Below the pieces are notes generated by a model. The model made no database searches. It was given only the letters and a program-made list of their open reading frames with translations, and had not been told where the DNA came from. A program made the position numbers and the translations under genes. Below are positions 623 to 56,929 of a DNA stretch of 64,000 bases, in pieces. Source of the stretch: a virus (lineage: Duplodnaviria; Heunggongvirae; Uroviricota; Caudoviricetes); IMG/VR virus record IMGVR_UViG_3300027509_000001, positions 1-64,000 of that record; one strand, 5' to 3'. Each line of letters opens with the position of its first letter. Position 1 is the stretch's first letter.

Positions 623-692
623 ATTGCCTATTAGACCTTGCAACTGTGGTAGAAAATGCTTATATTTATAATGTAATTAAAAAGCAATATAA

Positions 693-1675: not shown

Positions 1676-1757
1676 ATTTTCAAAACTCGGCCGAGGAAAT
1701 CAAATCCTACGTTATAGTCAGCAAAAAAAAATTACTAAAATATTTGGATATTAATTA

Positions 1758-1795
1758 TATTATGCGTATATTGTAATTGAAAGTTAAAAACAACT
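1758..1795 (+). promoter_or_regulatory. promoter-like motif (GTATATT..GTAATT..AAAAACA), + strand copy
   Basis: 'gcgtatattgtaattgaaagttaaaaacaac' resembles the - strand motif found upstream of the genes starting at 22130, 40316 and 12992. Confidence 0.35.
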
Positions 1796-6009: not shown

Positions 6010-6051
6010 TATTTTCTTGTAATTGTCAGAAATTATATGTAATTTTAAAAT

Positions 6052-12736: not shown

Positions 12737-12992
12737 TTCTAAATGGGCCTGTTAGCTTAGTTATCATTGGCGCACCAATTTTCCAATCCCAAACTCTATC
12801 TCTTTTATAACGAGATCCATCAGAAAATTTATAAACTCCATCTTCTGTAAAATATCCTAGTATTTCCATTCCCTTTCTCTTTAACCAAGCATTGAGTTCA
12901 TCTGGATTACTAGTTGTAATGGATCCATTTTTAGTCACTATCTGTATTTCTTTCATTGTATTTGTTTTAATTACAATACAAATATAATACAA
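12681..12992 (-). CDS. hypothetical protein
   Basis: 103-aa ORF; the likely start is the internal MKEIQIV; a promoter-like motif lies just upstream (12961-12990). Confidence 0.4.
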   Translation of the reverse strand: MYYICIVIKTNTMKEIQIVTKNGSITTSNPDELNAWLKRKGMEILGYFTEDGVYKFSDGSRYKRDRVWDWKIGAPMITKLTGPFRNGDGLRYESQAVYNSMSI

Positions 12993-13026
12993 TTATTGGT
13001 GAGATTGTGTTAAGGAAATGTTAATA

Positions 13027-19011: not shown

Positions 19012-19302
19012 TTATTTTATTCTCCAAATTCTTATTTCAGTGTTAATTGTTCTGGCAGTAAATGCCTTATTATATCTTTTTTTGTACCATGAAAATTTAG
19101 AATGAATGTCCTTCATTTTCCATGATTCAACAGGAACTGCAAACGATTCATTAATTTCAAGCTTCTTTAAAGTATTGGTGAATTTAGTACCACCTCGGGT
19201 TCCGCGAATTAGATTATCATAATTAACCTTTGGAATAGGAATATTACTATCGATTTTATAAATTATTTCCATACAGTTGTAATATACGCATAATATATTC
19301 AA
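19012..19302 (-). CDS. hypothetical protein
   Basis: 96-aa ORF. Confidence 0.4.
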   Translation of the reverse strand: MNILCVYYNCMEIIYKIDSNIPIPKVNYDNLIRGTRGGTKFTNTLKKLEINESFAVPVESWKMKDIHSKFSWYKKRYNKAFTARTINTEIRIWRIK

Positions 19303-19421
19303 TATGCAATTATTTTAGGCTATTCATTTTTTTTAATTATAATTCTAGGGAAAACCAATATGTTAATATCATTCCTAATAAATAAACTCCTAAAATTAAT
19401 GTTTCTTTCATTTTGCCAGAT

Positions 19422-21070: not shown

Positions 21071-21593
21071 CTATTAATATTTTTAATACCTTTTCTCCAT
21101 CGGCTGATGTGCCTAAGTGATTTAATTCTTCGTGCTTCCATTTCTTCTTAACTCTAGGAATTTCTGTTTCGAGATCTATGTTGTAATTCCTAGGCAATCC
21201 AATATATAAATGTTCCGTTTCGGAAGTTCCTAATTCAAATGCCCCGTCAACTAATGCTGGATGGTGGCATGGTCTTGCAAGTACAATGATAAATTTTTCT
21301 GGGTTTTTAGATAACAATGCATCTAATAGATAGTTAACATCTTTACTGTTTACTTCGTAGGGGAAGACATGAAGCGAATTTAAATTATACTCATATCTCA
21401 TTTTCATGAATGCAGTATAATCCATATATGGATCAATACCAATATAATTCTTAACACCAGCTTCAAAAAGTTTTTCAGCTAAATGGCCTGTACCACAACC
21501 AACTTCTATAATTGTTCTGCCAGCTGCATAATCTACTATCCATTCTACCATTTTATTATCTGGATTAAAGAATTTTGTATTTTGTATGTACAT
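21063..21593 (-). CDS. class I SAM-dependent methyltransferase
   Basis: Motif I 'IIEVGCGTGHLAEKL' and 'GIDPYMD'. Confidence 0.6.
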   Translation of the reverse strand: MYIQNTKFFNPDNKMVEWIVDYAAGRTIIEVGCGTGHLAEKLFEAGVKNYIGIDPYMDYTAFMKMRYEYNLNSLHVFPYEVNSKDVNYLLDALLSKNPEKFIIVLARPCHHPALVDGAFELGTSETEHLYIGLPRNYNIDLETEIPRVKKKWKHEELNHLGTSADGEKVLKILIDA

Positions 21594-21596
21594 TTC

Positions 21597-22130
21597 TTAA
21601 GATTTTAGTGTTTTATGAATTCTTACTTTTTGCATTTTCCTAGACATACCAAATATGTCTTCTATTTCTCGATTAGTAAGCGTAGATTTATTTTCACTTG
21701 GTTCTCCAGTTGACTCTTTTAAAAGATTGTTTTTAAGCATAAAAGCATATTTAGCGGTTTTTTTAACATGCTTCATTTCTGTTCGATAGGCTCTCAGCAA
21801 GAGGGTTGCTGCTTCTTTAAACTCTATCCATTTAATTAGAGAGGATTTAATTATAACTTTTCTTTTCTTAGGACGATAGGTCGTAGTATCTGTATTAAAG
21901 ATCTTTGCATTTAATGCGACTAGAATATCTAGTTCAGTGTTATCGTAATATCCAAAAATGTTTTCTTGGATTGCCTCACTTTCCATTATCTCTTCAATGC
22001 TAACGTTATATTTGGCTGCCAATTTGTCTAGCAGCATCTTAGCAGTCATTTTTTCAGATTCTGTGGATCCTCTTACGACTCTAGCATAAACCTTTTTAAG
22101 GGTTTCAATGTTTTTATCTCTTGTTGTCAT
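21597..22130 (-). CDS. hypothetical protein
   Basis: 177 aa; a promoter-like motif lies 10-40 nt upstream. Confidence 0.45.
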   Translation of the reverse strand: MTTRDKNIETLKKVYARVVRGSTESEKMTAKMLLDKLAAKYNVSIEEIMESEAIQENIFGYYDNTELDILVALNAKIFNTDTTTYRPKKRKVIIKSSLIKWIEFKEAATLLLRAYRTEMKHVKKTAKYAFMLKNNLLKESTGEPSENKSTLTNREIEDIFGMSRKMQKVRIHKTLKS

Positions 22131-22140
22131 AAATTGCTGT

Positions 22141-22170
22141 TTTTAATTACAATGTAAATATACACATAAT
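22141..22170 (-). promoter_or_regulatory. promoter-like motif copy (sense: GTGTATATTTACATTGTAATTAAAAACAG)
   Basis: Near-identical 30-mer at 40318-40347; similar copies at 12961-12990 and 1758-1795. Confidence 0.4.
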
Positions 22171-22203
22171 TTATGACAAGAAATGTTAAGAAAATGTTAA
22201 ATA

Positions 22204-22479
22204 TTAATTCTTAAGAATTATTTTAAGAGGACATTGCAAGTCTTTTATGTCTTTGTTAACATATTCAGACATTAATGTTGCGGCTTCATCCAATGAATCG
22301 TGGAGATATAGATTTTGCAAATACGTTTCCATTCTCCTGTTTGTTGGCATTGAGAATATAACGTCTATCTTTTCTCCAATGGAAAACATTTTTGTTACTG
22401 CTGCGGTTCCAACTGTTTTATAGCCAGAATCTTCGCTAGCGTCTTTCCTGTAGACAGGAATTATCGTAGTGTTATACAT
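22204..22479 (-). CDS. hypothetical protein
   Basis: 91-aa ORF. Confidence 0.4.
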   Translation of the reverse strand: MYNTTIIPVYRKDASEDSGYKTVGTAAVTKMFSIGEKIDVIFSMPTNRRMETYLQNLYLHDSLDEAATLMSEYVNKDIKDLQCPLKIILKN

Positions 22480-22496
22480 AGTTAAGTTATTTTGTT

Positions 22497-22688
22497 TTAT
22501 GCTTCGCCGCCTGGTGCCATTGGTATTATGACTTCTTCATCTTGAGGTGGAAGTGGAGTAATAGAACCTACATCATATGCGTCGTATTTTGGATTCAAGG
22601 AATCTAGTACCAATCTAAGCTCTTCAATTCTAATTGGTATAAAGAAATATATTTCTCTAGTATCTTCGTTAATTAAATATTTTGCCAT
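22497..22688 (-). CDS. hypothetical protein
   Basis: 63-aa ORF. Confidence 0.35.
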   Translation of the reverse strand: MAKYLINEDTREIYFFIPIRIEELRLVLDSLNPKYDAYDVGSITPLPPQDEEVIIPMAPGGEA

Positions 22689-22692
22689 TATT

Positions 22693-22995
22693 TTAGTTTG
22701 AATTTAAAGACATTTGAACAGCTTCTAGATAATCTCTTGCTGCAAATTCATGTTGCTGTTCCCATGTCATAGTATCATATCCCGGAATTGACGAACTGAG
22801 CATATTAAATTCATTATAAAACCCACAGCCATTATATCCCGATTTTGCCTTTGCTTCTGTACCATACAATAATATTCTCTTCTTTACTTTTCCACTTTCC
22901 AAATCTTCGATTGATTCCAACTGCCTATTTCTAGTTTGGCCACATGCTATCCATTTCCTATTTTTAGACATGATAGCCCATTGAGTTAACTTCAT
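22693..22995 (-). CDS. hypothetical protein
   Basis: 100-aa ORF. Confidence 0.4.
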   Translation of the reverse strand: MKLTQWAIMSKNRKWIACGQTRNRQLESIEDLESGKVKKRILLYGTEAKAKSGYNGCGFYNEFNMLSSSIPGYDTMTWEQQHEFAARDYLEAVQMSLNSN

Positions 22996-23489
22996 TATTC
23001 TTCCTCTTCGTTATTTAATTTATTTACTGCGGCTTTCTTTTGTTTAATAGTCTCATTTAAATGCCCTATTGCTGTTTCTTCTCCTTCTACTAAAGCCGTT
23101 CTATATATCATTGACCAAAGTATACCCTTATGTTTTTCGTCTTGATTAGGACTTAGCCTAGCAGATTCTGCCCAAAACTCATTAAATGCAATAGCTAATT
23201 TTCCAAACGACAATCTTTTCTTTTCTGCTGCAATTAAATTCTTGATATGCAATAATGCAGTCTTAAATCCTTGTCTGGCATTTATTACTTGAATGCGATT
23301 CACGACATTTGATTTATACGATTTCATTACTACCTTTTCTGGATCTATCATTGGATGGTTAGTGATAGACAGCTGAAGATATGTGGTAATTTTACTTAAT
23401 ATTGACTTAGATAATTTCTTATTATATTTCTTTTGCATGAACTTTATTTTGTAGGAAAATGCAGGCGAATCAACACCTGCAAATTTCAA
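22995..23489 (-). CDS. hypothetical protein
   Basis: 164-aa ORF. Confidence 0.45.
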   Translation of the reverse strand: MKFAGVDSPAFSYKIKFMQKKYNKKLSKSILSKITTYLQLSITNHPMIDPEKVVMKSYKSNVVNRIQVINARQGFKTALLHIKNLIAAEKKRLSFGKLAIAFNEFWAESARLSPNQDEKHKGILWSMIYRTALVEGEETAIGHLNETIKQKKAAVNKLNNEEEE

Positions 23490-23496
23490 TTGGTTT

Positions 23497-23820
23497 CTAG
23501 TCTTCTATTTGAAGTGGAGTCGAAGCTTCTCTTTCAGCCCTTAATTGTTCTTGCATATTTTCATAAGCCCTTTTGCAATTGCCAGCAGTTGAATACCAAT
23601 CACTGGACAATAATATGTGCCCTTGGCTAGAAACAACTTGAATTCGTTGGCCTGATTCTCCTATTTGCAAAGATTTTGTTGATGCCAACATCGCGAATTT
23701 TGCTTTTCTTGCTGCCCTAGATGCATTGCCTTTTGTCGTATAATACATACTTGATAGTAATGGCCTGCCAGATTCAGATCTTAGAGAAAATGTGTTGTTG
23801 TTTTTAACTGTTAATTTCAT
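23497..23820 (-). CDS. YegP/DUF1508-like tandem-repeat protein
   Basis: Two repeats: 'SGRPLLSSMYYTTKGNASRAARKAKF' and 'SGQRIQVVSSQGHILLSSDWYSTAGNCKRAYENMQ'. Confidence 0.5.
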   Translation of the reverse strand: MKLTVKNNNTFSLRSESGRPLLSSMYYTTKGNASRAARKAKFAMLASTKSLQIGESGQRIQVVSSQGHILLSSDWYSTAGNCKRAYENMQEQLRAEREASTPLQIED

Positions 23821-23875
23821 AATTATTTATGTTAAGATTAATGATTTGAACTTGATTTTATAGTTGACAAGTTCT

Positions 23876-24562
23876 TTATTTATTTTTTTGTAGTTTCTTT
23901 TGAATAGAGCATGTTTTAATTGCCAATGATTCATTATCAGTTTCCAATATCCTATTAAACCAATCCATTCGAGTGGCATGATTTGTCGTCCAAAATGTAT
24001 TACCAGCGGCTTTTCCTTGCTGCACCAAATATTTCTTTTCAGTTTCTGGCTGCTCCCATGGAGCATTTTTATGATTTGGAGTAATAAAGATCTTAAATCC
24101 TTCGATGAAAGGATCTATTCTAGTAGATTTAATCCTAGCCTGAGACATATATGATTCAATAGTTTGCCGATTAGAATGCATTGGCATTTGAGATAGTCCA
24201 TAATTCACTCCATTTGCAATAACATATTCAGTAAACATCGTTGTTCGTTGAACATATAACGATTTATCTGTATTCTGTGGATTGATTCTATCATGTACTT
24301 CTAGAAGTGAAATTGTTGGTATATTATCTTCCGAATTTAATATTGGTCGAATATCCTTTATGCTCACGACTCCTTTTATGGATCTTTGAAATTCTATTTC
24401 TACCAATTCATCTTTTTCAAAATCCTTAGAATCATAATAATATTCTTTAACAGGAACCGTTGGATCATCTGTTAAACATCTTAAATTCTTTAATCGAGTG
24501 TTTATAAAAGGCCTAATTGCCGGATCCGTAAACAAACTATCATTAATTCGTACTATTGCCAT
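23876..24562 (-). CDS. hypothetical protein
   Basis: 228 aa; preceded by the 'TTAAATATACGTAAAA' motif. Confidence 0.45.
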   Translation of the reverse strand: MAIVRINDSLFTDPAIRPFINTRLKNLRCLTDDPTVPVKEYYYDSKDFEKDELVEIEFQRSIKGVVSIKDIRPILNSEDNIPTISLLEVHDRINPQNTDKSLYVQRTTMFTEYVIANGVNYGLSQMPMHSNRQTIESYMSQARIKSTRIDPFIEGFKIFITPNHKNAPWEQPETEKKYLVQQGKAAGNTFWTTNHATRMDWFNRILETDNESLAIKTCSIQKKLQKNK

Positions 24563-24572
24563 TTTTATTTTT

Positions 24573-24592
24573 TTAAATATACGTAAAAATAT
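24573..24592 (-). promoter_or_regulatory. promoter-like motif B (sense: ..TTTTACGTATATTTAA..)
   Basis: Identical 18-mer at 56878-56897 upstream of the sliding-clamp gene; shares the core GTATATTTA with motif A. Confidence 0.35.
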
Positions 24593-24606
24593 TGAATTAT
24601 CCTAAT

Positions 24607-24915
24607 TTAATTGGAACTATTTTGATATAAATGCATAACATATTTTTTCTTATTAACGTCAGTAAGTTGCATATATTCTTTTTGAGTTACATAATTTATT
24701 CTTTCTAAATAAACAGGTCCTTTTCTTTGCCTTAAGATCATAGTTCCCATACAATGTAAACGAAAACAATCTGGGCATGGGTTTCGTAACCTAGCATTGT
24801 TTTCACATTTTATGTGGCCGCAAGATTCTCCATTTCTATAGAAAGAGATTATCCGGCCTGTTGCTCCAAATTTAATTAAGTCCGGTCTTTCTACTTTTGG
24901 TTTTTCTTTAGCCAT
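24607..24915 (-). CDS. zinc-finger protein
   Basis: Cys/His cluster 'CGHIKCENN..CPDCFRLHC'. Confidence 0.4.
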   Translation of the reverse strand: MAKEKPKVERPDLIKFGATGRIISFYRNGESCGHIKCENNARLRNPCPDCFRLHCMGTMILRQRKGPVYLERINYVTQKEYMQLTDVNKKKYVMHLYQNSSN

Positions 24916-25261
24916 GAAAGTTTTTTACACGAGTTGTAATATCAAATTTCTTGCAGGCCTTTAATATTGGGGTTAATGGCTTTGAAACATCATTAAATAC
25001 CAGTGCAATGTCTGCATTTAATATCGAATGCAATTTGTCTATTTCTCGGTCAATTGCCATATTCTTTTCCTTTGCGTATAATCTAATCATTGCAGCAGAA
25101 GGATCATCTTCGTGATATAATAATTTTATATACTGCATATCCATATCTCTCATTATTAAATCGCAATAATCAATTAGAGTTTCATACGAAGGTAATATAC
25201 TATTTGATGCAATAAGTACATTAATTTCAATGCTATTTAAAAGTTCTTTAGACTTTTTCAT
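24908..25261 (-). CDS. hypothetical protein
   Basis: 117-aa ORF. Confidence 0.4.
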   Translation of the reverse strand: MKKSKELLNSIEINVLIASNSILPSYETLIDYCDLIMRDMDMQYIKLLYHEDDPSAAMIRLYAKEKNMAIDREIDKLHSILNADIALVFNDVSKPLTPILKACKKFDITTRVKNFHG

Positions 25262-26594
25262 GTTTTTCAGTTATCGATTTATAAATCTTTCGTATGCTTT
25301 CGTTAAATGTATTCGAATTAATGCATACTTGTTCTATTTTTGCCATGCTTAATTTAGGCACTACGGATAACGAAGGTATGCGGTTGGGCATTCCAACTCC
25401 ATCGAAGAAGTGTTTGACGTATTCTATTATTAAATCCCATGATGGTAAATCTACTTGTAAATCCAAATTAATTCTTCCATCTCTATATAGTGCGCCATCT
25501 AATGTCTCAGGCTTATTTGTAGTTAATACAAAAATGACATTTTCTGGGCTATTCATACCATCCATTACTTGCAAGACGGTTGAGAAACTGACAAATGTTT
25601 TATCATTTGCTCCGCCACCTCTGCTTTTAGAATTTCCTAAATAGTCATCAATATCTTCAAACGCAATTATAGTATTAGATGGTATTTCTTTTATATAATT
25701 AACAAATTCACTATCAGTTGAAAAATTTGAAAGATTAATAGGTGCAACATTCATAGAAAATTCATGCGCTAATGCCATTATAATGCTTGTTTTACCTGTT
25801 CCAGGTGGCCCATAAAGCCGTATGCCAGTTTTATGTTTTATACCCTTAGAACGACAATGGTCGCGTTTAGAATTATGTATTTTAACATATTCAATTAACT
25901 CTTGTTTTCTATCAAAGAATAAATCTTTAAACTGTTTATAACATGTTACTTGAGTCGTTTCGATTTTCTCATATGCCGATTTACTTAAATTGTAAATTTT
26001 AATACCAGTTTCAGTTAAAGTTCTAGCATTGACTTCGTTTTTAATTCCTATTAACATTTTATCAATTGCCTTTCTAGCAAAAAATCCAGATATTCGATAT
26101 TCATTATAAAATAAATTTGAAATATTGTTGGCGTTTTCAAGTCGAATTCTATGTTTCCTTACGAATAATATCCTCCAAGATTTTACAATAAAATTAATAT
26201 CTTCTTCTTGATATTTCTCTAAATGATACTTAGTTCTGTTTAAGACTTCATCGTATTTTCCTGGCATGTACATTTGTACTCGCCTATAATTTTCTGGATA
26301 TTTATTTCTATACCAATTATTAAATTCTTCGTATAGCTGACCATCCATCTGCTGATCAATTAATGTTTCGTATATTAGAAATTTTCTAATCCAAGACCAA
26401 AAGGCTAATGGCCAATGCTTTAATTGAAATCCTACCCATGCTAATATAGATAATACCATTCCGCCTTGAAAAAATTCATTATTTTGTAAAGTTTCTATTA
26501 GATATCCTTTAATAGATTCTTTTGAAAGGTCTGGTATTATTTGAGAATTTAATGTATCTACAACTATATCTACTTGGCTACTATCTAACATCAT
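25248..26594 (-). CDS. AAA+ ATPase (BCS1-like architecture)
   Basis: Walker A 'LYGPPGTGKTS', Walker B 'IIAFEDID', sensor region; AAA module with a ~230-aa N-terminal extension. Confidence 0.6.
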   Translation of the reverse strand: MMLDSSQVDIVVDTLNSQIIPDLSKESIKGYLIETLQNNEFFQGGMVLSILAWVGFQLKHWPLAFWSWIRKFLIYETLIDQQMDGQLYEEFNNWYRNKYPENYRRVQMYMPGKYDEVLNRTKYHLEKYQEEDINFIVKSWRILFVRKHRIRLENANNISNLFYNEYRISGFFARKAIDKMLIGIKNEVNARTLTETGIKIYNLSKSAYEKIETTQVTCYKQFKDLFFDRKQELIEYVKIHNSKRDHCRSKGIKHKTGIRLYGPPGTGKTSIIMALAHEFSMNVAPINLSNFSTDSEFVNYIKEIPSNTIIAFEDIDDYLGNSKSRGGGANDKTFVSFSTVLQVMDGMNSPENVIFVLTTNKPETLDGALYRDGRINLDLQVDLPSWDLIIEYVKHFFDGVGMPNRIPSLSVVPKLSMAKIEQVCINSNTFNESIRKIYKSITEKHEKV

Positions 26595-26707
26595 ATCTCT
26601 ATTAAGTTTTCGTTCAAAAGTAAGTTAATAATTAATTCCGGATTTAACGGCTGCTTTACGGGATAAGTACTTAATTAATACCTTGCCTCCTGAATTACAC
26701 GATATCT

Positions 26708-27526
26708 TTACTTAAGGCCCTTGATCACCGACGTTCCGCTGCCAAATACATTATTTTCTCCAAACGGTGAATTTCCATGCTTTAAGAAACCATCCCACAT
26801 TTTATCTTGGATCTCTATTTCCTTCAATTTTAACATGGCAGGCTGTGATAATATTGCCTTTGTCTTAGCAGTATTTTGAGCTGTCTGCAATGCATAATCA
26901 GATTCTGCTAATAACGCCTTTCCAATATTTTCTTTTTCCAGTTTCATTTTTTCAGACAAATTGTTCTTTTCATCCTGAACTTTTGCTGCTATGATTTGTT
27001 GGCTAATCTTGTCTGGTAAATCAACGTCTAGGATCTGAACACGAGTAACATTTACAAACAACGTACTCATGTCTTCCTTTAATCCAGCTAATAGACTACT
27101 TTCAGCTTCTGGTCGTTTTGTTCTATTAAGCTCCAATGCTTGATGTTTTGCTGCTTCAGTTCGAACTGCTGCTTGAAATAGTGGTCCCATTTTGGATTCT
27201 CTATAATCTGGACCCACACCAGTATGAAGTTTGTTTACTGACAATGGCATTGGTTGATAATACATTGTAACTTTCAATTCAGTATCTAATCCATCGTAAT
27301 CTAAGTATTCTCCGGAAATCGTCATGGCTTGCTCTCTTACGTCGTATTCAATAAGGTCTGCACCAAACCACAATGCCGCAGCGAACGCCATTCCTTCGTC
27401 ATATACCTTAGACATGTCTGTTTTTCCTCCCCAATCTACATAAACGCCTTTATGACCAGAGTCTACTCCTTGGCAAGATGTTAATAACGCAACTATAAAT
27501 AATATAAAAATATTCTTGAATTTCAT
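26708..27526 (-). CDS. lipoprotein, possible SPFH/band-7-like
   Basis: Lipobox 'ALLTSCQG'; coiled-coil region rich in A/Q/K. Confidence 0.4.
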   Translation of the reverse strand: MKFKNIFILFIVALLTSCQGVDSGHKGVYVDWGGKTDMSKVYDEGMAFAAALWFGADLIEYDVREQAMTISGEYLDYDGLDTELKVTMYYQPMPLSVNKLHTGVGPDYRESKMGPLFQAAVRTEAAKHQALELNRTKRPEAESSLLAGLKEDMSTLFVNVTRVQILDVDLPDKISQQIIAAKVQDEKNNLSEKMKLEKENIGKALLAESDYALQTAQNTAKTKAILSQPAMLKLKEIEIQDKMWDGFLKHGNSPFGENNVFGSGTSVIKGLK

Positions 27527-27545
27527 TTTTTAAATTTATAAATGT

Positions 27546-27665
27546 CTAGACAAAATTGTCAAAATTGTTTCTTTTGTTTCTTCTATCGCTAACAATCCAT
27601 CTCCAGATTGCTATGGCCGTAAATAATAATACGGCGATTGGTACAAATACTATTAATTTTCCCAT
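27546..27665 (-). CDS. small single-pass membrane protein (39 aa)
   Basis: MGKLIVFVPIAVLLFTAIAIWRWIVSDRRNK..; below the ORF-track size cut-off. Confidence 0.3.
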   Translation of the reverse strand: MGKLIVFVPIAVLLFTAIAIWRWIVSDRRNKRNNFDNFV

Positions 27666-27667
27666 GT

Positions 27668-27805
27668 TTAAAATTTTTGTAATAAAGTTAATAATAAAAT
27701 GGCACATAACAAAATTAAAAGCCATTTATTTTGATTAGGATTTGGTTTAAATGGATTAGGTAAAAATATTGGACTGAATAACTTCTTTCTTTTTAATGTT
27801 AACAT
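27668..27805 (-). CDS. small membrane protein (45 aa)
   Basis: MLTLKRKKLF...WLLILLCAILLLTLLQKF; possible holin-like. Confidence 0.3.
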   Translation of the reverse strand: MLTLKRKKLFSPIFLPNPFKPNPNQNKWLLILLCAILLLTLLQKF

Positions 27806-28236
27806 TAATATATTGGTTTAAAATAAGCCCTTTCAGAATATATCGCTGAAACTACTGACCAAACTTTCCTTGCTATTTCCGAAGAAGTTTTTTCAAATAA
27901 ATCTTCTGGTATATTACTTGCTACCGCGATTGCCAATTGATCTTTTAATTGCATAGTATAATTTGCAGTATCAATTTCTAATAGATGCTCTTCTGATTTT
28001 AATAGTGATGAAGCGTCCTTTTCTATGACATTCGAATTCTTTGTAGTTTCCAATTCCTCCAATAAAGAATGATCTCTATTAAAATCAGATAATGCCATTC
28101 TTTCTTTATGCCCAGAATCTACGTATTCATAATGAATACTAGTAGCAGTTATTTCTAACACCTTCAATTTAGCAATCGAGTTACTGAGCATTTTATGCTG
28201 TTTTACTATATAACTGAAATTTTCTTTAGCTTCCAT
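27805..28236 (-). CDS. hypothetical protein
   Basis: 143-aa ORF. Confidence 0.45.
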   Translation of the reverse strand: MEAKENFSYIVKQHKMLSNSIAKLKVLEITATSIHYEYVDSGHKERMALSDFNRDHSLLEELETTKNSNVIEKDASSLLKSEEHLLEIDTANYTMQLKDQLAIAVASNIPEDLFEKTSSEIARKVWSVVSAIYSERAYFKPIY

Positions 28237-28242
28237 TTTATT

Positions 28243-28848
28243 TTATTTAGCAAATAACAAAGTTGGTGAATTTTTATGAACCGTTGTAGAAAATTGTAAC
28301 CGAAAATTCTGTAAATTAAATGGTTCTGAAATAATATGATATCCATTTTTTGTATAATAATGCCCTAAGATAGAATAATTGTTTGACATTGATTTATGCT
28401 CATAATTTATACAATCTATATGTTCAGCTATTAATTCTTCTTCAGTGCCATATGAATTTTCATCAAAATCAATGTCTACTACCCATCTTTTTACCTCTTG
28501 ATCATTATAACTTCCAACTGTTTTCTGAAATAATACTGGCAGAGAATTATACTGATTGTTAATTAATAATTCTGTTAATTTCTTCATACACCTTAATCCC
28601 ATTTTATCCATTCTCCTCTTATTCAGATTGATATATATTCTAGCATTATGGTCCGAAGCATAAGCAATCCACCTTTCAATATTATCTAATAAATATTGCC
28701 TTGAAGATATATATTTCTCCTTTAATATTGAAGCAGATTTTTTGTTTCCATCCTTTCTCCTTTGAATGATCTGCAAAATATAAAAATCATAAGCGGATGT
28801 AAATTCTAATAATCGAATAATATTTTCAGTGTTATTAATTTCATTCAT
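28243..28848 (-). CDS. hypothetical protein
   Basis: 201-aa ORF. Confidence 0.45.
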   Translation of the reverse strand: MNEINNTENIIRLLEFTSAYDFYILQIIQRRKDGNKKSASILKEKYISSRQYLLDNIERWIAYASDHNARIYINLNKRRMDKMGLRCMKKLTELLINNQYNSLPVLFQKTVGSYNDQEVKRWVVDIDFDENSYGTEEELIAEHIDCINYEHKSMSNNYSILGHYYTKNGYHIISEPFNLQNFRLQFSTTVHKNSPTLLFAK

Positions 28849-29375
28849 AATCCGTAATATTGATGCTTTCCTGTTGTTCCATAATATTCTGCTTTCTTTA
28901 CTAGTCTACGAATCCATCCTGATCCTATTTTACTTGCTAAGGCTTCATTGTGATAGAATAATACATTTGCTGGCAGTTTTGAGCCATTAAGCAATAAATC
29001 CATAGCTACATCTCTGCAATCTTGATCTAATTTACCATAGTTTGGATCTTTCCTTATAACGTATTCAAACATTTTACTTTTAATTCCTGCAAATTGCCGC
29101 TTCTGATATACGACTCCCCACATAGTAGAAGGATAATTAGGATGTGCCATTCGATTTAAAATTACCGATCCTACCCACTGTTTATCTTTAAACGATTCGC
29201 CAATTGATTCTGCACGAATGATCTTGGATAATAAAATTATTTCTTCAGGATCTAATTTACAGTATTCATTTAGGTTTTCATTGCAACATTCAATAGGTGA
29301 CACTTTGGCGTCAATTGATAATGACCAAGTGACTGCAAATAAGACACATGCAAAAGTTAATATTTTAATTTTCAT
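28845..29375 (-). CDS. SleB-like cell-wall hydrolase (Hydrolase_2 family), secreted
   Basis: Signal peptide; 'IIRAESIGE...WVGSVILNRMAHPNYPSTMWGVVYQKRQF'. Confidence 0.6.
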   Translation of the reverse strand: MKIKILTFACVLFAVTWSLSIDAKVSPIECCNENLNEYCKLDPEEIILLSKIIRAESIGESFKDKQWVGSVILNRMAHPNYPSTMWGVVYQKRQFAGIKSKMFEYVIRKDPNYGKLDQDCRDVAMDLLLNGSKLPANVLFYHNEALASKIGSGWIRRLVKKAEYYGTTGKHQYYGL

Positions 29376-29664
29376 AAGTAAGATTTATAAATTCAATTAA
29401 ATCATTCTCTTCTGGGTCCCAGTCTGTCTGCCCATCGATTAATATTTCTCCATGGTCTTCATCTCCAACTGTTATCGTATTATCTTCTATTTCTGCACCA
29501 ATCATGTCTGCTATATCTGTGTAACTAGCTCCATGCTCTTTGTATTCAGTTTGCCCTTCTTCCAGATAAATAACCTTTCCATCTTCATAAAATGCATCTA
29601 TAATATTCATATCTTTATTTTTAATTACATTTATAAAGATATATAAAATATTTATAATATCCAA
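29365..29664 (-). CDS. acidic hypothetical protein
   Basis: 99 aa, D/E-rich. Confidence 0.4.
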   Translation of the reverse strand: MDIINILYIFINVIKNKDMNIIDAFYEDGKVIYLEEGQTEYKEHGASYTDIADMIGAEIEDNTITVGDEDHGEILIDGQTDWDPEENDLIEFINLTYEN

Positions 29665-29667
29665 ATT

Positions 29668-30243
29668 TTAACTAGATATAATTTTAGAAACATTGGAAAT
29701 GAATTCATTTAAAGTTCCATTATTCTTAATAAGAAATTGCCATACTTCTGGAACAACATCGTCTAATGCAGTTTCAGACGAATGATTATCTATTGGTATG
29801 TTATCTCTTTCAATTCTAATTTTGACGACTTCGTACTTGTCTGAAGATAAATAATTGTCAATAAGAAGTTCATTAGGAAATCTACAATCGGTTATTATAA
29901 TATTATTAGCGGTTGATTCTTCTATTTTTCTTACTGCAATTTTAACCCATGCATCTAAATCTATAGTATTTCTAATGCCCTCTGTTCCTAATATTTGTAA
30001 TATGTCTCTGAGCATTAATGGAGATAGATCGTGTCCAAATTTAGTTGGTAACAATTTCTGCGCTTGTGTATAGTCACCATTGACCATTTTAATACCAGTC
30101 AGAATTTCTGCCATTTGCTTTAGTGCGCCGGCAAACATTATGGTTTCTGTTTGACCTCTAAGATGTTGCTTTAAGCTATTAGCCAGAGTGTCTTTACCTG
30201 TTCCTTTTTTACCTGATATTATAAATACTTTAATTTTTTGCAT
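29668..30243 (-). CDS. dNMP kinase-like P-loop kinase (T4 gp1-like)
   Basis: N-terminal 'VFIISGKKGTGKDTLANSL'. Confidence 0.5.
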   Translation of the reverse strand: MQKIKVFIISGKKGTGKDTLANSLKQHLRGQTETIMFAGALKQMAEILTGIKMVNGDYTQAQKLLPTKFGHDLSPLMLRDILQILGTEGIRNTIDLDAWVKIAVRKIEESTANNIIITDCRFPNELLIDNYLSSDKYEVVKIRIERDNIPIDNHSSETALDDVVPEVWQFLIKNNGTLNEFISNVSKIISS

Positions 30244-30721
30244 TCCATTTATTTTTTAGTTCTGTAATATCGTGTATGTCCCATTCAGTAGGAGATTGTT
30301 TTAAATAGGGCGGAACAAATTTTATGCATAATACACCCCCTTCATTTAATTCCTTTACTGTTGAAGGTTTATCATCTATATGATGCGTAATACCATAATC
30401 TCTGCATGATTGTAGTTTGTCATATGAAGCAATTATTGGCTTATCGGGAAATCCTTCTTTCCAAAGATTTATTCTTCTAGCCTCAATCATCTTTTCTGGA
30501 ATAGATGTTAAGTAATAGTCAAAGTCAACATTAATGTCTTTAGGGTTGATCAATGCAGGAATTGTTTCCCAAAACTTCACTTCGTCTTTTATATTTTGAT
30601 ACATTTCCCATACTAAAGGATCTTCCCAATCATTAATAATTTTTGGGCATTCTTTTCCATGCCATTCGTAAGCATGTTTGACGAAATTTAAACAAATTCC
30701 GTCTACGTCAAATGATTTCAT
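30230..30721 (-). CDS. HAD-superfamily 5'(3')-deoxyribonucleotidase
   Basis: 'FDVDGICLNF' DxDG[IV] motif at the N-terminus. Confidence 0.55.
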   Translation of the reverse strand: MKSFDVDGICLNFVKHAYEWHGKECPKIINDWEDPLVWEMYQNIKDEVKFWETIPALINPKDINVDFDYYLTSIPEKMIEARRINLWKEGFPDKPIIASYDKLQSCRDYGITHHIDDKPSTVKELNEGGVLCIKFVPPYLKQSPTEWDIHDITELKNKWNAKN

Positions 30722-30736
30722 TTTTAAAATTTTAAA

Positions 30737-31021
30737 TTAAAATTCACCTAGAATTCTCAAAGTCTTTTCGGCATTTAGACTTAGGATGTTACATGTAAAA
30801 TTATTTTCGAAAACTCCGTCATCTCTAATTTTCATTTCGTATCTATTTCCATTTACATCTTTATCGTAGATTTTAAAATCGTTTTTATCGACAATTTTAC
30901 TTGCGATCAAGTCTTGCAAGTGCCGAATGTCTATTTCTTCTGCATAATATACAGTTCCATTAAATTCTACTTCTACCTTATCTAGATATGGAGTATTAAT
31001 TATTTCTCTAATCGAGTTCAT
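30737..31021 (-). CDS. hypothetical protein
   Basis: 94-aa ORF. Confidence 0.4.
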   Translation of the reverse strand: MNSIREIINTPYLDKVEVEFNGTVYYAEEIDIRHLQDLIASKIVDKNDFKIYDKDVNGNRYEMKIRDDGVFENNFTCNILSLNAEKTLRILGEF

Positions 31022-31025
31022 TGAA

Positions 31026-31715
31026 TTATTTTAAGCGATTTCTTAATTTAAGTTGAAGTGTAATCCATTTCTTAGCAATGGGATTTGTAATAGACGATTC
31101 TGCAAACTTTTTAACTTCTTTCCAAAGTTTATCTAGGCCAGAACTGTTATCTCTAGTACTATTATCTATAATTGATATATTAGATCTTCCAAATAGCGAT
31201 TGAAATTTTCCAAGATTTTGCTGGGCATCATACCATGCTTGTTTTACTATATCTTCCGGAAGTGACCTTTCTCGTTTTTGGTTTCTTTCTAATGCCACTT
31301 CCAAAGAAGTATTGACAAATACCATGTAACAATCATAACCTAACTTCTTTAGATCTGCAACATGACTTTTTATTTTCGAATAATTCTTTCCAGTTCCATC
31401 TACTATAAATCCTAATCTTCCATCAATATAAGCATCATGTTGAGCATTAGCTGTTTTTTTAGCCTTTGGCCTTAAGGCCATTATTTTATCTAGCTGATCT
31501 TTGGGGAACTTTAAAGATAAGCCATGTTTTTTAATAAGCCTTTCAAAGGGCACATCTGAAGCAACTACTTTAAATCCATGACCCATTGTTGATTTATTCA
31601 GTACATATGATTTTCCTGACCCAGGTCCTCCAGCCATAAATATGGTTTTAAATATGGCCCTGTCATATACACCTTCCTTTAATATTTCTTCAATTAATAT
31701 ATCATTTAGTTTCAT
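31026..31715 (-). CDS. P-loop NTPase / kinase
   Basis: Walker A 'MAGGPGSGKSYV'. Confidence 0.45.
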   Translation of the reverse strand: MKLNDILIEEILKEGVYDRAIFKTIFMAGGPGSGKSYVLNKSTMGHGFKVVASDVPFERLIKKHGLSLKFPKDQLDKIMALRPKAKKTANAQHDAYIDGRLGFIVDGTGKNYSKIKSHVADLKKLGYDCYMVFVNTSLEVALERNQKRERSLPEDIVKQAWYDAQQNLGKFQSLFGRSNISIIDNSTRDNSSGLDKLWKEVKKFAESSITNPIAKKWITLQLKLRNRLK

Positions 31716-31732
31716 TTTCTTTTCATTTCCTT

Positions 31733-32305
31733 TTATTTATGCAACTTTGATTCTGGTGGTGCTAATAATATTTTTTCATATTCAGTTCCACCAATTTCTC
31801 TAGTATAATGATATCCATCTTTTGATGGTTTTATTTTCTTTCCAATAATTTTTTCTACTTTATGGGCAGGAACGGGTTTCATTCCTTTATGCAGGGCATA
31901 TTTTTCAGCAGCGCCTGAGAATTCGCCCCATGCCCTATTAAATTTAATATCGTCTTTATAAATTTGCTTGGCCCATTGTTTACCTACTGGAGTCATATCA
32001 TGGGCTCCTCCTATTGCTTTTCGACCATGTTTATCTTTATATACTGCGGCTGCAATAATTTTGCCATTCTTTCTTACTAATTTCATAAACCCAGCTTTAG
32101 ATATCATATGATTGGCATTTTTGGCTCCTTTAAATCCACCTAAGTCTTTATACGTTTTTTGGAATAATCCCCAAACTGCGTCTGCATATTTTTTCATTTC
32201 GACTTTAGTATGCAAATTGACAAAGGTTTCATTAATATAATTTTCTCTAAGAATTCTTTCGTATTCTTTATCTGCTGACTCTTTTATATAGTTTACTAAA
32301 CTCAT
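31733..32305 (-). CDS. hypothetical protein
   Basis: 190-aa ORF. Confidence 0.45.
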   Translation of the reverse strand: MSLVNYIKESADKEYERILRENYINETFVNLHTKVEMKKYADAVWGLFQKTYKDLGGFKGAKNANHMISKAGFMKLVRKNGKIIAAAVYKDKHGRKAIGGAHDMTPVGKQWAKQIYKDDIKFNRAWGEFSGAAEKYALHKGMKPVPAHKVEKIIGKKIKPSKDGYHYTREIGGTEYEKILLAPPESKLHK

Positions 32306-32883
32306 TGCGTATATCCTTCGTTAAATAGAACTAAATCCTCTTTAATATTAGCAATTACTTGACTTATGTCACTATGTCGGTGGTTTTGTTCTGTAACGTG
32401 TATCTTTAATGCAAACCCATTGTCAATAATATCTTGAGACCAACTTTCATAATCTAAAACAGTATCTTTGGACCCTACATAAAATGTCAGTCTATCTATA
32501 ATATGGCGGTGCATAATATTGGGCTTAATCATAGACAAATGACTAATAAAATCTCCTGATACATAAGATTCTTCTCCAGTCTTATAATTTTTAATCTTGG
32601 TTCCTATTAAATATGACAAAGTAGTATCTGGACTAAAGGATGGGTTAATTAAATGTACTTTCAAATATGAAAATTCTATAGCTAATATCATGGCATAAAA
32701 ACCTCCTAAAGAAGTACCAACTACATATTCAATATGATTTGATATAATTATATCCCTTAATACCTCTAGATCTTTCTTAGGATCGTTTACTAATTGTGGA
32801 GAATGTACTTTTACCCCCAATTTTCTAAACTCCTTATCCTTGCCTCCTGGCCCAGAGTTAAATCCATGTATATATAATACCAT
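32302..32883 (-). CDS. alpha/beta-hydrolase esterase (YqiA-like)
   Basis: 'VLYIHGFNSGPG' N-terminus and 'GTSLGG' nucleophile elbow. Confidence 0.5.
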   Translation of the reverse strand: MVLYIHGFNSGPGGKDKEFRKLGVKVHSPQLVNDPKKDLEVLRDIIISNHIEYVVGTSLGGFYAMILAIEFSYLKVHLINPSFSPDTTLSYLIGTKIKNYKTGEESYVSGDFISHLSMIKPNIMHRHIIDRLTFYVGSKDTVLDYESWSQDIIDNGFALKIHVTEQNHRHSDISQVIANIKEDLVLFNEGYTQ

Positions 32884-32922
32884 ATTTATTCTTTATAAAC
32901 AAATATACTTAAATTTTTTGAC

Positions 32923-33438
32923 TTATTCAAATATATTAATATATAGTTTTGCATATTCATTATATATACCTGTTACATTTAAACGATCGATCCAATTATT
33001 AAAATATTCTAACAATTCTTTACTTCTTTCGTGATTTCCATAATGGTGTATCATGAAATCTTTCTTATTTTGAATTTTGTCAACTGATAACATGTCATTT
33101 ACGTCTTTTATTGGAGATAGTTTTATCTCATCTATGGATTCTATTTTTCGCTGAGATAAATAAGACATTGCAATATGCCGATATTCCATTGCCAATAATA
33201 TTACTGGAGATTTGCACTTAAGGCTTATACTTTGCCAATTCTTTGCCAACGCGTCGTCTGGTTGCAACATTGGATGAATGCAAAAGGCTCTTCTAGCTAA
33301 ATTTGAGGCGTTTAACAAATCAAAAATTTCCAATGCATCATCTATATGATCCATATACCTGACTTTCGAACGCTTTGCTATTTGGTTTCCATAGTACTCA
33401 TTGATCAATTGATATTCTATTGACTGCTTAATATTCAT
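32923..33438 (-). CDS. hypothetical protein
   Basis: 171-aa ORF. Confidence 0.45.
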   Translation of the reverse strand: MNIKQSIEYQLINEYYGNQIAKRSKVRYMDHIDDALEIFDLLNASNLARRAFCIHPMLQPDDALAKNWQSISLKCKSPVILLAMEYRHIAMSYLSQRKIESIDEIKLSPIKDVNDMLSVDKIQNKKDFMIHHYGNHERSKELLEYFNNWIDRLNVTGIYNEYAKLYINIFE

Positions 33439-34061: not shown

Positions 34062-34250
34062 TTTTTATTTAAGTAAGATTTTAATCTTTTTTCTTAAATT
34101 GTCGTTATCCTCAAGTAATTCTGCGATTAGGTCTACATCTATGCTATCTGCTCCATACTCATGAAACATTTTATCGTAAGTTTTTATTCTCTTACGTAAC
34201 TTTTTAAGATGTTGCCTGTAATATCTTGTTTCTTTTGTCATATCTTAATT

Positions 34251-34583: not shown

Positions 34584-34600
34584 ATTATGTATTTTTTAGG

Positions 34601-35313: not shown

Positions 35314-35360
35314 TAAATATGTAAAAATTTTAATAAAAGTAACATGTACTTACCAAAAAG

Positions 35361-36362: not shown

Positions 36363-36382
36363 ACTAAATAATTTTGTTTTAG

Positions 36383-36451: not shown

Positions 36452-36452
36452 A

Positions 36453-38500: not shown

Positions 38501-38513
38501 ATGATTTGCAAAA

Positions 38514-38834
38514 TTATACTAATGTTTCTATGTCTTTGACATGATAAATTTTAATTTCTTCTATACTATGAATTCCGCCATATGGTCCTGAGGGAACATA
38601 TTCGTAAAACCAATCTAATTGTTCTCGTGTACATTCTGGATAAATTTCCGATGGTACCTTTTCACTGTTATTATGAGTTGGCCACGTATGAGCATATCCT
38701 GGTTTCTTTTTCAAGGCTGCAATCGCATTGATTACTGGCATAATTAGTGTTAATGTTTTATCATCAATTTCATTCATTTCCGCCACATAATCGGCGTCAT
38801 TATGATCGCCTTTAATCCATATAAATTTCTTCAT
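38514..38834 (-). CDS. hypothetical protein (start trimmed to MKKFIWIKG)
   Basis: The track ORF's N-terminus overlaps a tRNA-like element; the internal Met avoids it. Confidence 0.4.
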   Translation of the reverse strand: MKKFIWIKGDHNDADYVAEMNEIDDKTLTLIMPVINAIAALKKKPGYAHTWPTHNNSEKVPSEIYPECTREQLDWFYEYVPSGPYGGIHSIEEIKIYHVKDIETLV

Positions 38835-40069: not shown

Positions 40070-40316
40070 CCTTACAAATTAAATTTGGAATTTGCTTCCT
40101 CCAATATGCAATTATCTCTTTAAATTCTTCTAGGCTTTTTATTGGAAAATCTATATATCCGTACTCGTCCTCTGAATAAGTCCCTCTATTTTGAACTACT
40201 CGAACGGCATCATATCTCACTAATTCATTTTTCCATTCCCACTCTATTCGTTCTAGTTCAGTTGCATGTGTGAATTTTAAATTTCCATTTCTTGTTTCTA
40301 TTATATTCATTGTCAA
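39969..40316 (-). CDS. hypothetical protein
   Basis: 115 aa; a promoter-like motif lies immediately upstream. Confidence 0.4.
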   Translation of the reverse strand: MTMNIIETRNGNLKFTHATELERIEWEWKNELVRYDAVRVVQNRGTYSEDEYGYIDFPIKSLEEFKEIIAYWRKQIPNLICKVGSKNDIPPQLSENMLFIYQEEHLYENKHRYYG

Positions 40317-40317
40317 T

Positions 40318-40347
40318 TGTTTTTAATTACAATGTAAATATACAAAT
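40318..40347 (-). promoter_or_regulatory. promoter-like motif copy
   Basis: 'ttttaattacaatgtaaatatacaaatata' is nearly identical to 22141-22170. Confidence 0.4.
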
Positions 40348-40560
40348 ATATATTTTAAAATCCAAATGACTGCCTTTAAAAGATTTGAACTTTTAAACTT
40401 CCAACCTATTGTCTCTTTTTCCAACCTATTAATGTTTTCTTCAAAAGATATCGTTGATCGGTGTGCCCACTACACTATGACAATTGGAACGTTGCAACAT
40501 CCCAGCCCCATAAATAACGCTAATTATTTGTCGGGTCTTTCATTCAAGTTTAGAGTTGTG

Positions 40561-40828: not shown

Positions 40829-40940
40829 ATTTTAACCAACATGTCAATGAACTTAATTTAAGGCATTTAAAGTATATATCCTTTCATAAGTTAAATATAC
40901 AATTAAATTTACTATTTTCCAAATTAATTTGATATTATTT

Positions 40941-41965: not shown

Positions 41966-42007
41966 TTAAGTAAAGGTAAATAAAATAATTGACAATTTCA
42001 ACTATCC

Positions 42008-56857: not shown

Positions 56858-56877
56858 TTTTTTTAATTTTGAAGTGG

Positions 56878-56897
56878 CTTAAATATACGTAAAATAT
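56878..56897 (-). promoter_or_regulatory. promoter-like motif B copy
   Basis: 'cttaaatatacgtaaaatat' equals 24573-24592. Confidence 0.35.
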
Positions 56898-56929
56898 TTC
56901 ACATATCCAAATTTATCTGCATTTCCATT

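Follow-up and report, generated by a model that had tools for sequence, protein, structure and literature searches.

A 64,000-nucleotide (nt) stretch of the virus record IMGVR_UViG_3300027509_000001, referred to below as the window and belonging to a T4-like phage with 31% G+C, carries a short A/T-rich motif at 22141-22170 on the - strand and, in closely similar form, upstream of several other genes. What does this motif do, and which polymerase would read it? An earlier note had described it as promoter-like, possibly representing a phage-specific class reminiscent of T4 late promoters. The comparisons presented here support the promoter and point to another reader: we hold with considerable confidence that the motifs are promoters from which the primary-sigma form of the host RNA polymerase transcribes; the predicted host belongs to the Bacteroidota and is most likely Flavobacteriia-like.

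Copies of the motif, their placement and anatomy

Motif A, in the form of the 26-mer GTATATTTACATTGTAATTAAAAACA, occurs twice without mismatch on the - strand, at 22138-22163 and 40318-40343, a repeat found in none of 100 shuffled sequences. Both copies end 7 nt before an ATG, at 22130 and 40310, the latter being the real start of the second gene rather than the TTG at 40316 that had been given for it. The diverged copy spans 12957-12990 (TATATTTGTATTGTAATTAAAAC, ATG at 12956), and the + strand version lies at 1767-1783 (TATATTGTAATTGAAAG). Motif B, TTTTACGTATATTTAA, is identical at 24573-24588 and 56879-56894, the identity reaching further upstream to ATT(A/T)GGATA, and its second copy does stand upstream of the sliding-clamp gene, as 56126-56857 (-) matches phrog_223, the DNA polymerase processivity factor (E = 1.2e-10). 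Nor is the motif confined to the loci first noticed: when all intergenic regions were read, sub-motifs searched and the hits compared with gene starts, about 15 related sites emerged within the window, and the 3 kb directly upstream of it (L018) added another three. The additional copies include those at 661-690 (+), 29611-29641 (-), 32900-32907 (-), 40892-40899 (before a tRNA-Thr gene) and 19279-19286 (-), with weaker boxes at 6040, 26622, 38516 and 41978.

By count alone, the 9-mer GTATATTTA is not significant (five copies versus 2.4 expected; five or more in 10 of 100 shuffles). All five copies are intergenic and on the gene strand, a compartment comprising 4.3% of strand-positions (P = 1.5e-7). 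The same intergenic sense DNA holds 7 of 24 copies of TGTAATT (P = 5e-5), 17 of 158 of TAHHTTTA (P = 7e-4) and 8 of 84 of TAHHTTTG (P = 0.03), and there is no enrichment of TAHHTTTY (6 of 272). Given that boxes ending in A or G are both enriched there and pyrimidine-ended ones are not, the box is read as TAnnTTTR. Likewise, TANNTTTG occurs 97 times in the window against 102 expected, so that what is informative is solely its position with respect to genes.

The copies precede genes that are mostly open reading frames without known relatives (ORFans) and show no significant similarity to one another. This rules out paralogy of these genes as the cause of the repeat and identifies the repeated unit as a regulatory cassette rather than a gene. 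The gene behind the first motif A copy (21597-22130) is itself an ORFan without orthologues, and conservation of its promoter therefore cannot be compared in the way that of the clamp gene can. The genes following the motif A copies at 693-704 and 22119-22130 both start with ATGACAACAAGA (MTTR), the proteins being otherwise unrelated; the shared cassette may reach into the genes by a few codons, consistent with recombination between copies.

Alignment of the 14 strongest sites, 11 of them in the window, on the box TATATTT(A/G) gives a common layout: TTTG(GAT)-N17-TATATTT(A/G), a G 5 nt downstream, and an unstructured leader with an A-run. Two upstream arrangements are distinguished in the following list, TTTG or TTG (class 1) and paired TTAACA repeats (class 2).

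22131..22200 (-): motif A copy 1, class 2; TTAACATTTTCTTAACA at 22184-22200, 21-nt spacer, -7 box TATATTTA at 22155-22162, predicted start G 22150, leader GTAATTAAAAACAGCAATTT, ATG 22130 of the ORFan 21597-22130 (177 aa)
40311..40366 (-): motif A copy 2, class 1; TTTGGAT at 40360-40366, 17-nt spacer, TATATTTA at 40335-40342, predicted start G 40330, ATG 40310; an overlapping TATATTTG at 40343-40350
12957..13024 (-): motif A copy 3, class 2; TTAACATTTCCTTAACA at 13008-13024, 21-nt spacer, TATATTTG at 12979-12986, then TATTGTAATTAAAAC, predicted start G 12974, ATG 12956 of a 91-aa ORFan
638..692 (+): motif A copy 4, class 1; TTGCAA at 638-643, 17-nt spacer, TATATTTA at 661-668, then TAATGTAATTAAAAAG, predicted start G 673, ATG 693
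29611..29665 (-): motif A copy 5; TTTGGAT at 29659-29665, 17-nt spacer, TATCTTTA at 29634-29641, TAAATGTAATTAAAAATAAAGAT, ATG 29610
1743..1795 (+): truncated motif A; TTTGGAT at 1743-1749, 17-nt spacer, TATATTGT at 1767-1774, then AATTGAAAG
24563..24605 (-): motif B copy 1; TTAGGAT at 24599-24605, 17-nt spacer ending in TTTTACG, TATATTTA at 24574-24581, 11 nt of A-rich leader after the box, ATG 24562
56858..56911 (-): motif B copy 2, predicted sliding-clamp promoter; TTTGGAT at 56905-56911, 17-nt spacer, TATATTTA at 56880-56887, ATG 56857
32884..32931 (-): predicted promoter with canonical box; TTTGAAT at 32925-32931, 17-nt spacer, TATATTTG at 32900-32907, ATG 32883
40829..40923 (-): predicted promoter before tRNA-Thr / tRNA-Glu; TTTGGAA at 40917-40923, 17-nt spacer, TATATTTA at 40892-40899
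19273..19309 (-): leaderless-like site; TTGCAT at 19304-19309, 17-nt spacer, TATATTAC at 19279-19286, 6 nt to ATG 19272
6017..6051 (+): weaker leaderless-like site; TTGTAA, 17-nt spacer, TAATTTTA at 6040-6047, 4 nt to ATG 6052
41966..42001 (-): weaker leaderless-like site; TTGAAA, 17-nt spacer, TACCTTTA at 41971-41978, 5 nt to ATG 41965
26595..26622 (-): canonical -7 box TACTTTTG at 26615-26622, 20 nt to ATG 26594 of a gene for a 448-aa AAA-type ATPase
38501..38516 (-): canonical -7 box TAATTTTG at 38509-38516, 8 nt upstream of the tRNA gene 38429-38500

A TTG lies exactly 17 nt before the box at 10 of the 14 aligned sites. At six of these ten it is part of TTTGGAT, TTTGGAA or TTTGAAT, equivalent to TTTG-N20-box (40342, 56887, 1767, 29641, 40899 and 32907); sites 661, 19286 and L018:1529 have TTG only, and 24581 has TTAGGAT. 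Every intergenic sense match to TTGNNN-N16-18-TATAWT reads TATATT, never TATAAT. The pattern TA..TTT is present in 12 of the 14, the exceptions being 1767 (TATATTGT) and 19286 (TATATTAC), two sites that have ATATTATGCGTATATT in common; further boxes ending in G lie at 32907, 26622 and 38516. Past the box, motif A continues as yAWTGyAATTAAAA, with a conserved G 5 nt past the box in all copies and an A-run ending 5-10 nt before the ATG. This run occupies -14..-10 relative to the ATGs at 22130 and 40310, and falls within -15..-8 at the other three copies in the window. Since the distance from box end to ATG is 22-24 nt at six strong sites, a start 4-5 nt past the box would leave a leader of 18-20 nt.

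These predicted leaders do not fold. The minimum free energy is 0.0 kcal/mol for three of the five motif A copies in the window and -0.9 and -2.4 kcal/mol for the others, none of the leaders falling below its shuffle mean, and Rfam yields tRNAs only, which dismisses a structured 5' untranslated region (UTR) or riboswitch. Within 21100-41000, no terminator-like hairpin adjoins any site; a weak A/T hairpin precedes 40342 only, and a true terminator stands before L018:1529.

Several observations concern individual sites. The predicted motif A promoter within L018 1440-1620 (-), about 1.5 kb before the window start (box 1522-1529), is preceded by this strong terminator hairpin and by inverted TGTTAA repeats. 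A second terminator-like hairpin (AGAGGG...CCCTCT plus T-run) follows about 70 nt downstream with no open reading frame (ORF) between, making the stretch a candidate small RNA. The promoter at 1767 is separated from the gene at 1930 by about 150 nt of G+C-richer DNA without ORF (1775-1929), and the 318-nt intergenic region 2209-2526 (+) contains short repeats (AACCATATAA and CCGTAAC...GTTAC). Both regions may be non-coding RNAs or binding sites; an Rfam search of the two gave no match. At 6040, 41978 and 19286, just 4-6 nt separate box end and ATG, and the predicted mRNAs have no leader or almost none, a type reported to be rare in Bacteroides (about 3.7% of 5' UTRs are <10 nt).

Match to Bacteroidota promoter and translation signals

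Promoters of the Bacteroidota primary sigma factor (sigma ABfr type) consist of a -33 TTTG and a -7 TAnnTTTG, transcription starting 4-5 nt past the box (PMC6847099, PMC7366714), as it does in Flavobacterium johnsoniae, in which G-5, the last box position, is nearly invariant (PMC6847099). The phage sites share five of the six near-invariant box positions, TA..TTT (T-12, A-11, T-8, T-7 and T-6), TTTG 20 nt upstream and a purine 5 nt downstream, and GTATATTTA includes the -7 element TATATTT(A/G), close to the TAnnTTTG consensus. The -35-like hexamer has just TTG in common with the sigma-70 consensus TTGACA. In Bacteroidota, the -33 TTTG lies about 19-21 nt upstream of the box and is weak in Flavobacterium.

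The translation signals are of the same kind. Only 4 of the 127 window genes have GGAG or GAGG at -22..-4, and the A frequency across these genes peaks at 58-67% at -13..-9. F. johnsoniae mRNAs lacking a Shine-Dalgarno (SD) sequence are enriched in A at -14..-11 (PMC6847099), the position occupied by the A-run of motif A, which can thus be regarded as an ordinary initiation signal. Given that the commonest 5' UTR length in Bacteroides thetaiotaomicron is 23 nt (PMC7366714), the predicted leader, SD-less and A-rich like those of the phylum, is also normal in length. The observation that the conserved flanks are longer than a -10 element needs stands, and they are explained by the predicted start site and this leader: with box, start and ribosome-loading signal packed into about 35 nt, nearly every position would be constrained.

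The distribution of the motif in cellular genomes leads to the same phylum. A scan of one genome per species, covering 185,579 species, for the 22-mer TATATTTRYATTGTAATTAAAA (promoter plus leader) returned 41 matches, of which 35 are in Bacteroidota from all classes and five in low-G+C Bacillota or Mycoplasmatota. The Bacteroidota include Bacteroides, Phocaeicola, Prevotella, Alistipes, Tannerella, Paludibacter, Flavobacterium, Tenacibaculum, Polaribacter, Maribacter, Chitinophagales, Saprospiraceae and Cytophagales, among others. Most matches lie no more than about 45 nt upstream of unrelated gene starts, about half of them within 15 nt, and many have TTG at -33; the genes that follow, read from the sequences by eye, encode glutamine synthetase-like, OsmC-like, outer-membrane, GHMP-kinase-like and mobile-element proteins. 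A general Bacteroidota consensus reaching past TAnnTTTG was considered and rejected: 26 other promoters in the bacterial loci fetched show just 'yA' beyond the box, and the rest of motif A is therefore not universal. Roughly estimated, chance alone would give between about 3 and about 100 matches in Bacteroidota promoters, according to the A/T frequencies assumed, and the 35 matches demonstrate phylum specificity rather than a special element.

Other phages add a further line. In a BLAST of the motif against isolated phages, the best intergenic matches are in phages of Bacteroidota. Nonlabens phage P12024L, an unrelated 36-kb phage, has TTTG-N19-TATATTTGCATTGTAATTAAAAACATAAATT-ATG before gene 58, identical to motif A at 25 of 26 nt; TATATTTGTATTA... 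immediately precedes genes in Tenacibaculum phage pT24 and Chryseobacterium phage MA9V-1, and Prevotella Lak phages also score. The exact 26-mer has no match in IMG/VR. A degenerate motif A has 121 there, with an ATG within 25 nt in 88 and TTG at -33 in 72, and one contig holds five copies in 1.6 kb. No protein is common to the window and the multi-copy contig fragments L024, L085 and L031, from which it follows that the likeness stems from shared host signals or transferable cassettes and not from common descent. Searches with the DNA and the proteins of L024 and L085 gave no matching phage. Thus, translation signals, genome scan and other phages, three lines of evidence that look independent, agree on Bacteroidota.

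For the clamp gene, the promoter can be followed through relatives. At 68, 55 and 47% protein identity, TTGATA/TTGGTA/TTGGTT-N16-17-TATATT is kept upstream at the same distance to the ATG, and spacer and flanks have diverged around the conserved TTG...TATATT. The closer relatives are likewise SD-poor, whereas distant ones (33-36% identity) are enriched in G at -11..-8, indicating that expression signals track the host and not the phage lineage. Taken together, the promoter-like character originally proposed finds support in position, strand, spacing to the ATG, the fixed -33/-35 partner and this conservation.

On this basis, the following course of events can be proposed. Host polymerase carrying its primary sigma factor would contact the -7 box (at class 1 sites the TTTG as well) and begin transcription at the conserved G (22150, 40330, 12974 and 673). 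What is left of motif A (GTAATTAAAAAC...) would form an unstructured 5' leader of 18-20 nt, offering the ribosome an A-run at its preferred position. Motif A would then be a compact cassette of promoter, start site and leader copied before early genes, the near-identity of the copies being maintained probably through selection for very high signal strength, with recombination as a possible contributor.

Several points weigh against this proposal. Of the 14 aligned sites, 11 end their box in A (8 of 11 in the window) and one in G, and all five copies of GTATATTTA have A; in F. johnsoniae this last position is the nearly invariant G, and among the genome matches to TATATTTRYATTGTAATTAAAA it is G in 29 (27 of them Bacteroidota) versus A in 12 (8 Bacteroidota). 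This preference for A could be a second phage-specific adaptation. The clamp boxes of the relatives read TATATTAA/TATATTAT, with just TATATT conserved, a pattern that could also come from a conventional sigma-70 -10 element. Moreover, the four class 2 sites (22162, 12986, L018 2300(+) and L018 734(-)) have no TTG at -33, TTAACA repeats taking its place, and the phage copies are far more alike than host promoters are among themselves. Finally, the host assignment is drawn from expression signals alone, and the closest family B DNA polymerase in the phage collection, at 40.7% identity, is that of Microcystis phage Mel-JY01.

The TTAACA direct repeats

At the four class 2 sites, TTAACA-N5-TTAACA lies exactly 21 nt upstream of the box. 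The same element was located upstream of -7 boxes as follows.

22184-22200 and 13008-13024 (-), window: TTAACA-N5-TTAACA
756-772 (-), 1567-1583 (+) and 2262-2278 (+), L018, and 653-669, L017: TTAACA-N5-TTAACA
10.9-19.9 kb, Tenacibaculum phage Larrie (L295): TTAACA-N5-TTAACA

Its spacing is far from arbitrary. In an IMG/VR scan for TTAACA-N5-TTAACA-N12-42-TATATTTG, the gaps are nearly all 20-21, 30-32 or 41-42 nt, those of 41-42 nt being mostly triple repeats, and in an unbiased scan of JGI metagenome contigs (gap 19-33) there are 45 unique sites at 19-22, 72 at 30-32 and only 7 at 23-29. The two main gap classes, 20-22 and 30-32 nt, are one helical turn apart. In the former, the proximal repeat occupies the -33 position; in the latter, 40 of 71 cases have a TTG at -33, flanked by the repeats on one side and the box on the other. 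No fewer than 12 consecutive Larrie promoters show the 31-type arrangement, pT24 has three repeats, N21 and then TATATTTGTACTGTAATTA, and a relative of the window phage has TTAACA repeats before denV. The genes downstream are mostly small (median 98 aa), as phage genes are. The element also stands before genes that, judged by eye, encode two TonB-dependent receptors, one PiT phosphate transporter and AcpH, on higher-G+C, bacterial-looking contigs. At 16856, 17481, 18706 and 19334 (+) of Larrie, TTAACA pairs stand back to back, and the + strand members precede TTTG-N20-TAnnTTTG boxes without an annotated gene; these boxes may be antisense or small-RNA promoters.

Both UP elements and response-regulator boxes, Pho boxes for example, typically show an 11-bp period and phasing by one turn; the cyanobacterial Pho box, PyTTAAPyPy(T/A), is no more than a lead. 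No description of TTAACA in Flavobacteria promoters, nor of a Bacteroidota Pho-box consensus, was found in the literature. Period and position of class 2 fit a Pho box, most carriers precede phage ORFans, and a Bacteroidota consensus for direct comparison was not found. Our tentative proposal, which we would not yet call probable, is that TTAACA-N5-TTAACA is an undescribed upstream promoter element of Bacteroidota, either UP-like or a target of the response-regulator type.

A related idea, plausible though falling short of likely, is that class 2 sites are activator-dependent, 'middle-type' promoters, at which the host -7 box is retained and the -33 contact gives way to a protein on the repeats (centre near -42); candidates for it are an early phage product, the polymerase alpha subunit (UP-like) and a host response regulator. 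Four copies of one geometry, TTAACA-N5-TTAACA-N21-box, without TTG at -33 speak for it, as do the repeats upstream of denV, the helical phasing of the gap to TATATTTG, and the recurrence of the element in Larrie, in pT24 and before the TonB-dependent receptor, PiT and AcpH genes. Like the T4 MotA box and the PhoB Pho box with its two 11-bp direct repeats, class 2 has phased repeats of 11-bp period at -33. It differs from the MotA box (TGCTT) and the E. coli Pho box in sequence, and from activator boxes that replace the -35 in that many other phages carry TTAACA one turn further upstream, beside an intact -33. No TGCTT box is present at -30 of the class 2 sites, which instead have the TTAACA repeats at -50..-34, and neither MotA nor AsiA is among the family matches for the covered parts of the window, no search having been aimed at them. 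On the other hand, no protein is common to the window and the other TTAACA-carrying phage fragments (only fragments were compared), which argues against a common phage factor and makes a host protein or the polymerase itself the more economical reader. One class 2 site opens a rightward early block (L018 2262-2330), where an immediate-early promoter would be expected, and the absence of copies from 293 kb of Bacteroidota chromosomal DNA fetched for another purpose implies that the element is rare in hosts.

Alternative readings and the genomic setting

Recombination is a complement to the host-promoter reading rather than a competitor. T4-type phages contain PeSL cassettes, composed of promoter, ribosome-binding site and start codon and repeated in hyperplastic regions before ORFans (PMC4122927). 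It is possible, if on the doubtful side, that the phage cassettes are modules of this kind, exchange between which shuffles ORFans and homogenises the copies. The resemblance is considerable: a composite of promoter, ribosome loading and start is repeated before ORFans in plastic regions, there being two promoter flavours with a common downstream half as among PeSL and PmSL (PMC4122927), and copies exact over 26 nt or near-exact over 20-30 nt precede unrelated ORFans in small-gene regions, genes 693 and 22130 even sharing their ATGACAACAAGA start. The stem-loop that defines PeSL upstream is absent at most copies, however, an A-tract is found in place of the SD sequence, and near-identical sequences in unrelated phages show that selection alone suffices.

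The segment past the box (ATTGTAATTAAAAA) might alternatively be an operator for a DNA-binding repressor or a RegA-like translational repressor. In the two identical copies, it does contain a perfect 5+5 inverted repeat, TTACA-T-TGTAA, and it would fall in the 5' UTR near the ribosome-binding region. The inverted repeat is lost in the variant copies TTGTATTGTAA, TTATAATGTAA and TTACATTGCAA, however; the small genes around the clamp and clamp-loader genes, the position of regA in T4, have no recorded family match; the same 14 nt precede unrelated genes in many Bacteroidota genomes; and the position of the A-run fits the general initiation signal of all 127 genes. An operator is thus improbable.

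Still less probable, to the point of being hard to maintain, is a class private to the phage and read by a phage sigma factor, as gp55/gp33 read the T4 late element TATAAATA. T4 late promoters have no -35 partner and precede late (virion) genes. The phage box is indeed, like the gp55/gp33/clamp-dependent T4 late element, an A/T-only 8-mer near -10 and thus superficially similar in composition, and the phage prefers TATATTTA over the host consensus TATATTTG. Nevertheless, the resemblance noted earlier does not hold: none of the 19 copies of TATAAATA in the window lies in intergenic sense DNA, the sites read TATATTTA, most have TTTG or TTG at fixed spacing, which is not a gp55-type feature, and the downstream genes (ORFans, tRNAs and the clamp) are of early type. 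In addition, the same box, start region and leader recur in unrelated Flavobacteriia phages and, in many Bacteroidota, before ordinary chromosomal genes. Of the phage-specific class proposed in the earlier note there remain the near-identity of the copies and the A in place of the host-consensus G at the last position; the class itself mostly falls away. T4 early promoters offer a parallel, since these 'uber' promoters (UP/-35/TGn/-10), which the host polymerase reads in its unmodified form, are likewise strong host-type signals before small early genes and tRNA genes and have more conserved positions than sigma contacts require (PMC2988021). The phage sites differ in following the consensus of another host phylum and in having no TGn, and their early timing is presumed from the genes they precede.

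Chance similarity of A/T-rich intergenic DNA, to which 31% G+C, the non-significant raw count of GTATATTTA and an uninformative generic sigma-70 scan (113 matches versus 105.7 in shuffles) might seem to lend weight, is refuted by a 26-nt exact repeat never seen in shuffles, strictly sense and intergenic placement, fixed spacing to TTG and ATG, and the clamp promoter kept in relatives, and is scarcely credible.

In its replication genes the window is that of a T4-type phage; the coding strand changes from + to - at about 11970. It belongs to a 188,513-bp metagenomic contig (ENA ERZ27241782 k141_383866, identical to JGI 3300009073 Ga0114957_1000029), about 70 kb of which was covered. Its family B DNA polymerase is divided over two - strand ORFs, 60510-62336 and 56930-57844, separated by two genes, one for a GIY-YIG/NUMOD3 endonuclease (59467-60474) and one endonuclease-like (57834-58673); genes for a Dda-like helicase, an ATP-dependent ligase and the clamp loader are also present, along with numerous small ORFs without known families and a tRNA cluster. 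The clamp-loader gene region, 50519-53899 (-), is interrupted, showing intein-splicing matches and a TnsA-like endonuclease at 51207-52235. The phage collection contains no near-identical phage, and no closely related genome was found, the best related clamp being 68% identical and located on a 2.6-kb contig.

In the tRNA cluster (34584-40850, -), Rfam finds eight tRNAs versus five by ARAGORN, two of the latter with odd anticodon loops. Three of the Rfam tRNAs are 101-161 nt long (38052-38167, 38176-38276 and 38849-39009), implying large insertions or introns, and further GGTTCGAATCC T-loop-like sequences are called by neither program. Two paralogous genes of about 220 aa lie within the cluster (34645-35313 and 39096-39746, -); relatives with 45-50% identity occur on the unrelated viral contigs L057 and L079, and the pair may be mobile and endonuclease-like. 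The 7-deazaguanine (queuosine-precursor) pathway is represented by genes at 53892-55176 (PTPS/QueD at 54190-54648, a phosphoribosyltransferase-family gene at 54649-55176, and DUF4494), with GTP cyclohydrolase I and QueC genes just past the window end (L013, the 2.8 kb directly downstream; 1-2922). This suggests that the phage modifies guanines in its own DNA; that such modification has to do with the promoter box preferring A to G is purely speculative.

Most likely, then, judging from the sequence comparisons, the recurrent motif represents Bacteroidota-type host promoters plus leader multiplied as cassettes in a T4-like phage, the promoter type itself being already known: a phage version of the host's standard promoter and leader, and not a new transcription system. 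In this way an uncultivated 188-kb T4-like phage and its closer relatives would be assigned to a Bacteroidota host through expression signals alone; to our knowledge, few T4-type phages have been described for this phylum. The cassettes, compact and probably very strong, may be of use in the engineering of Flavobacteriia and Bacteroides, and the promoter-plus-leader 22-mer could serve as a phylum-specific probe. The likeliest new biology here is the TTAACA element with its one-turn phasing in hundreds of viral and metagenomic contigs. If the repeats do replace the -33 element, the T4-like phage would have two promoter classes built on one -7 box and leader cassette, a Bacteroidota counterpart of the T4 early/middle pair, and the phages of this phylum would make heavy use of TTAACA for their early genes.

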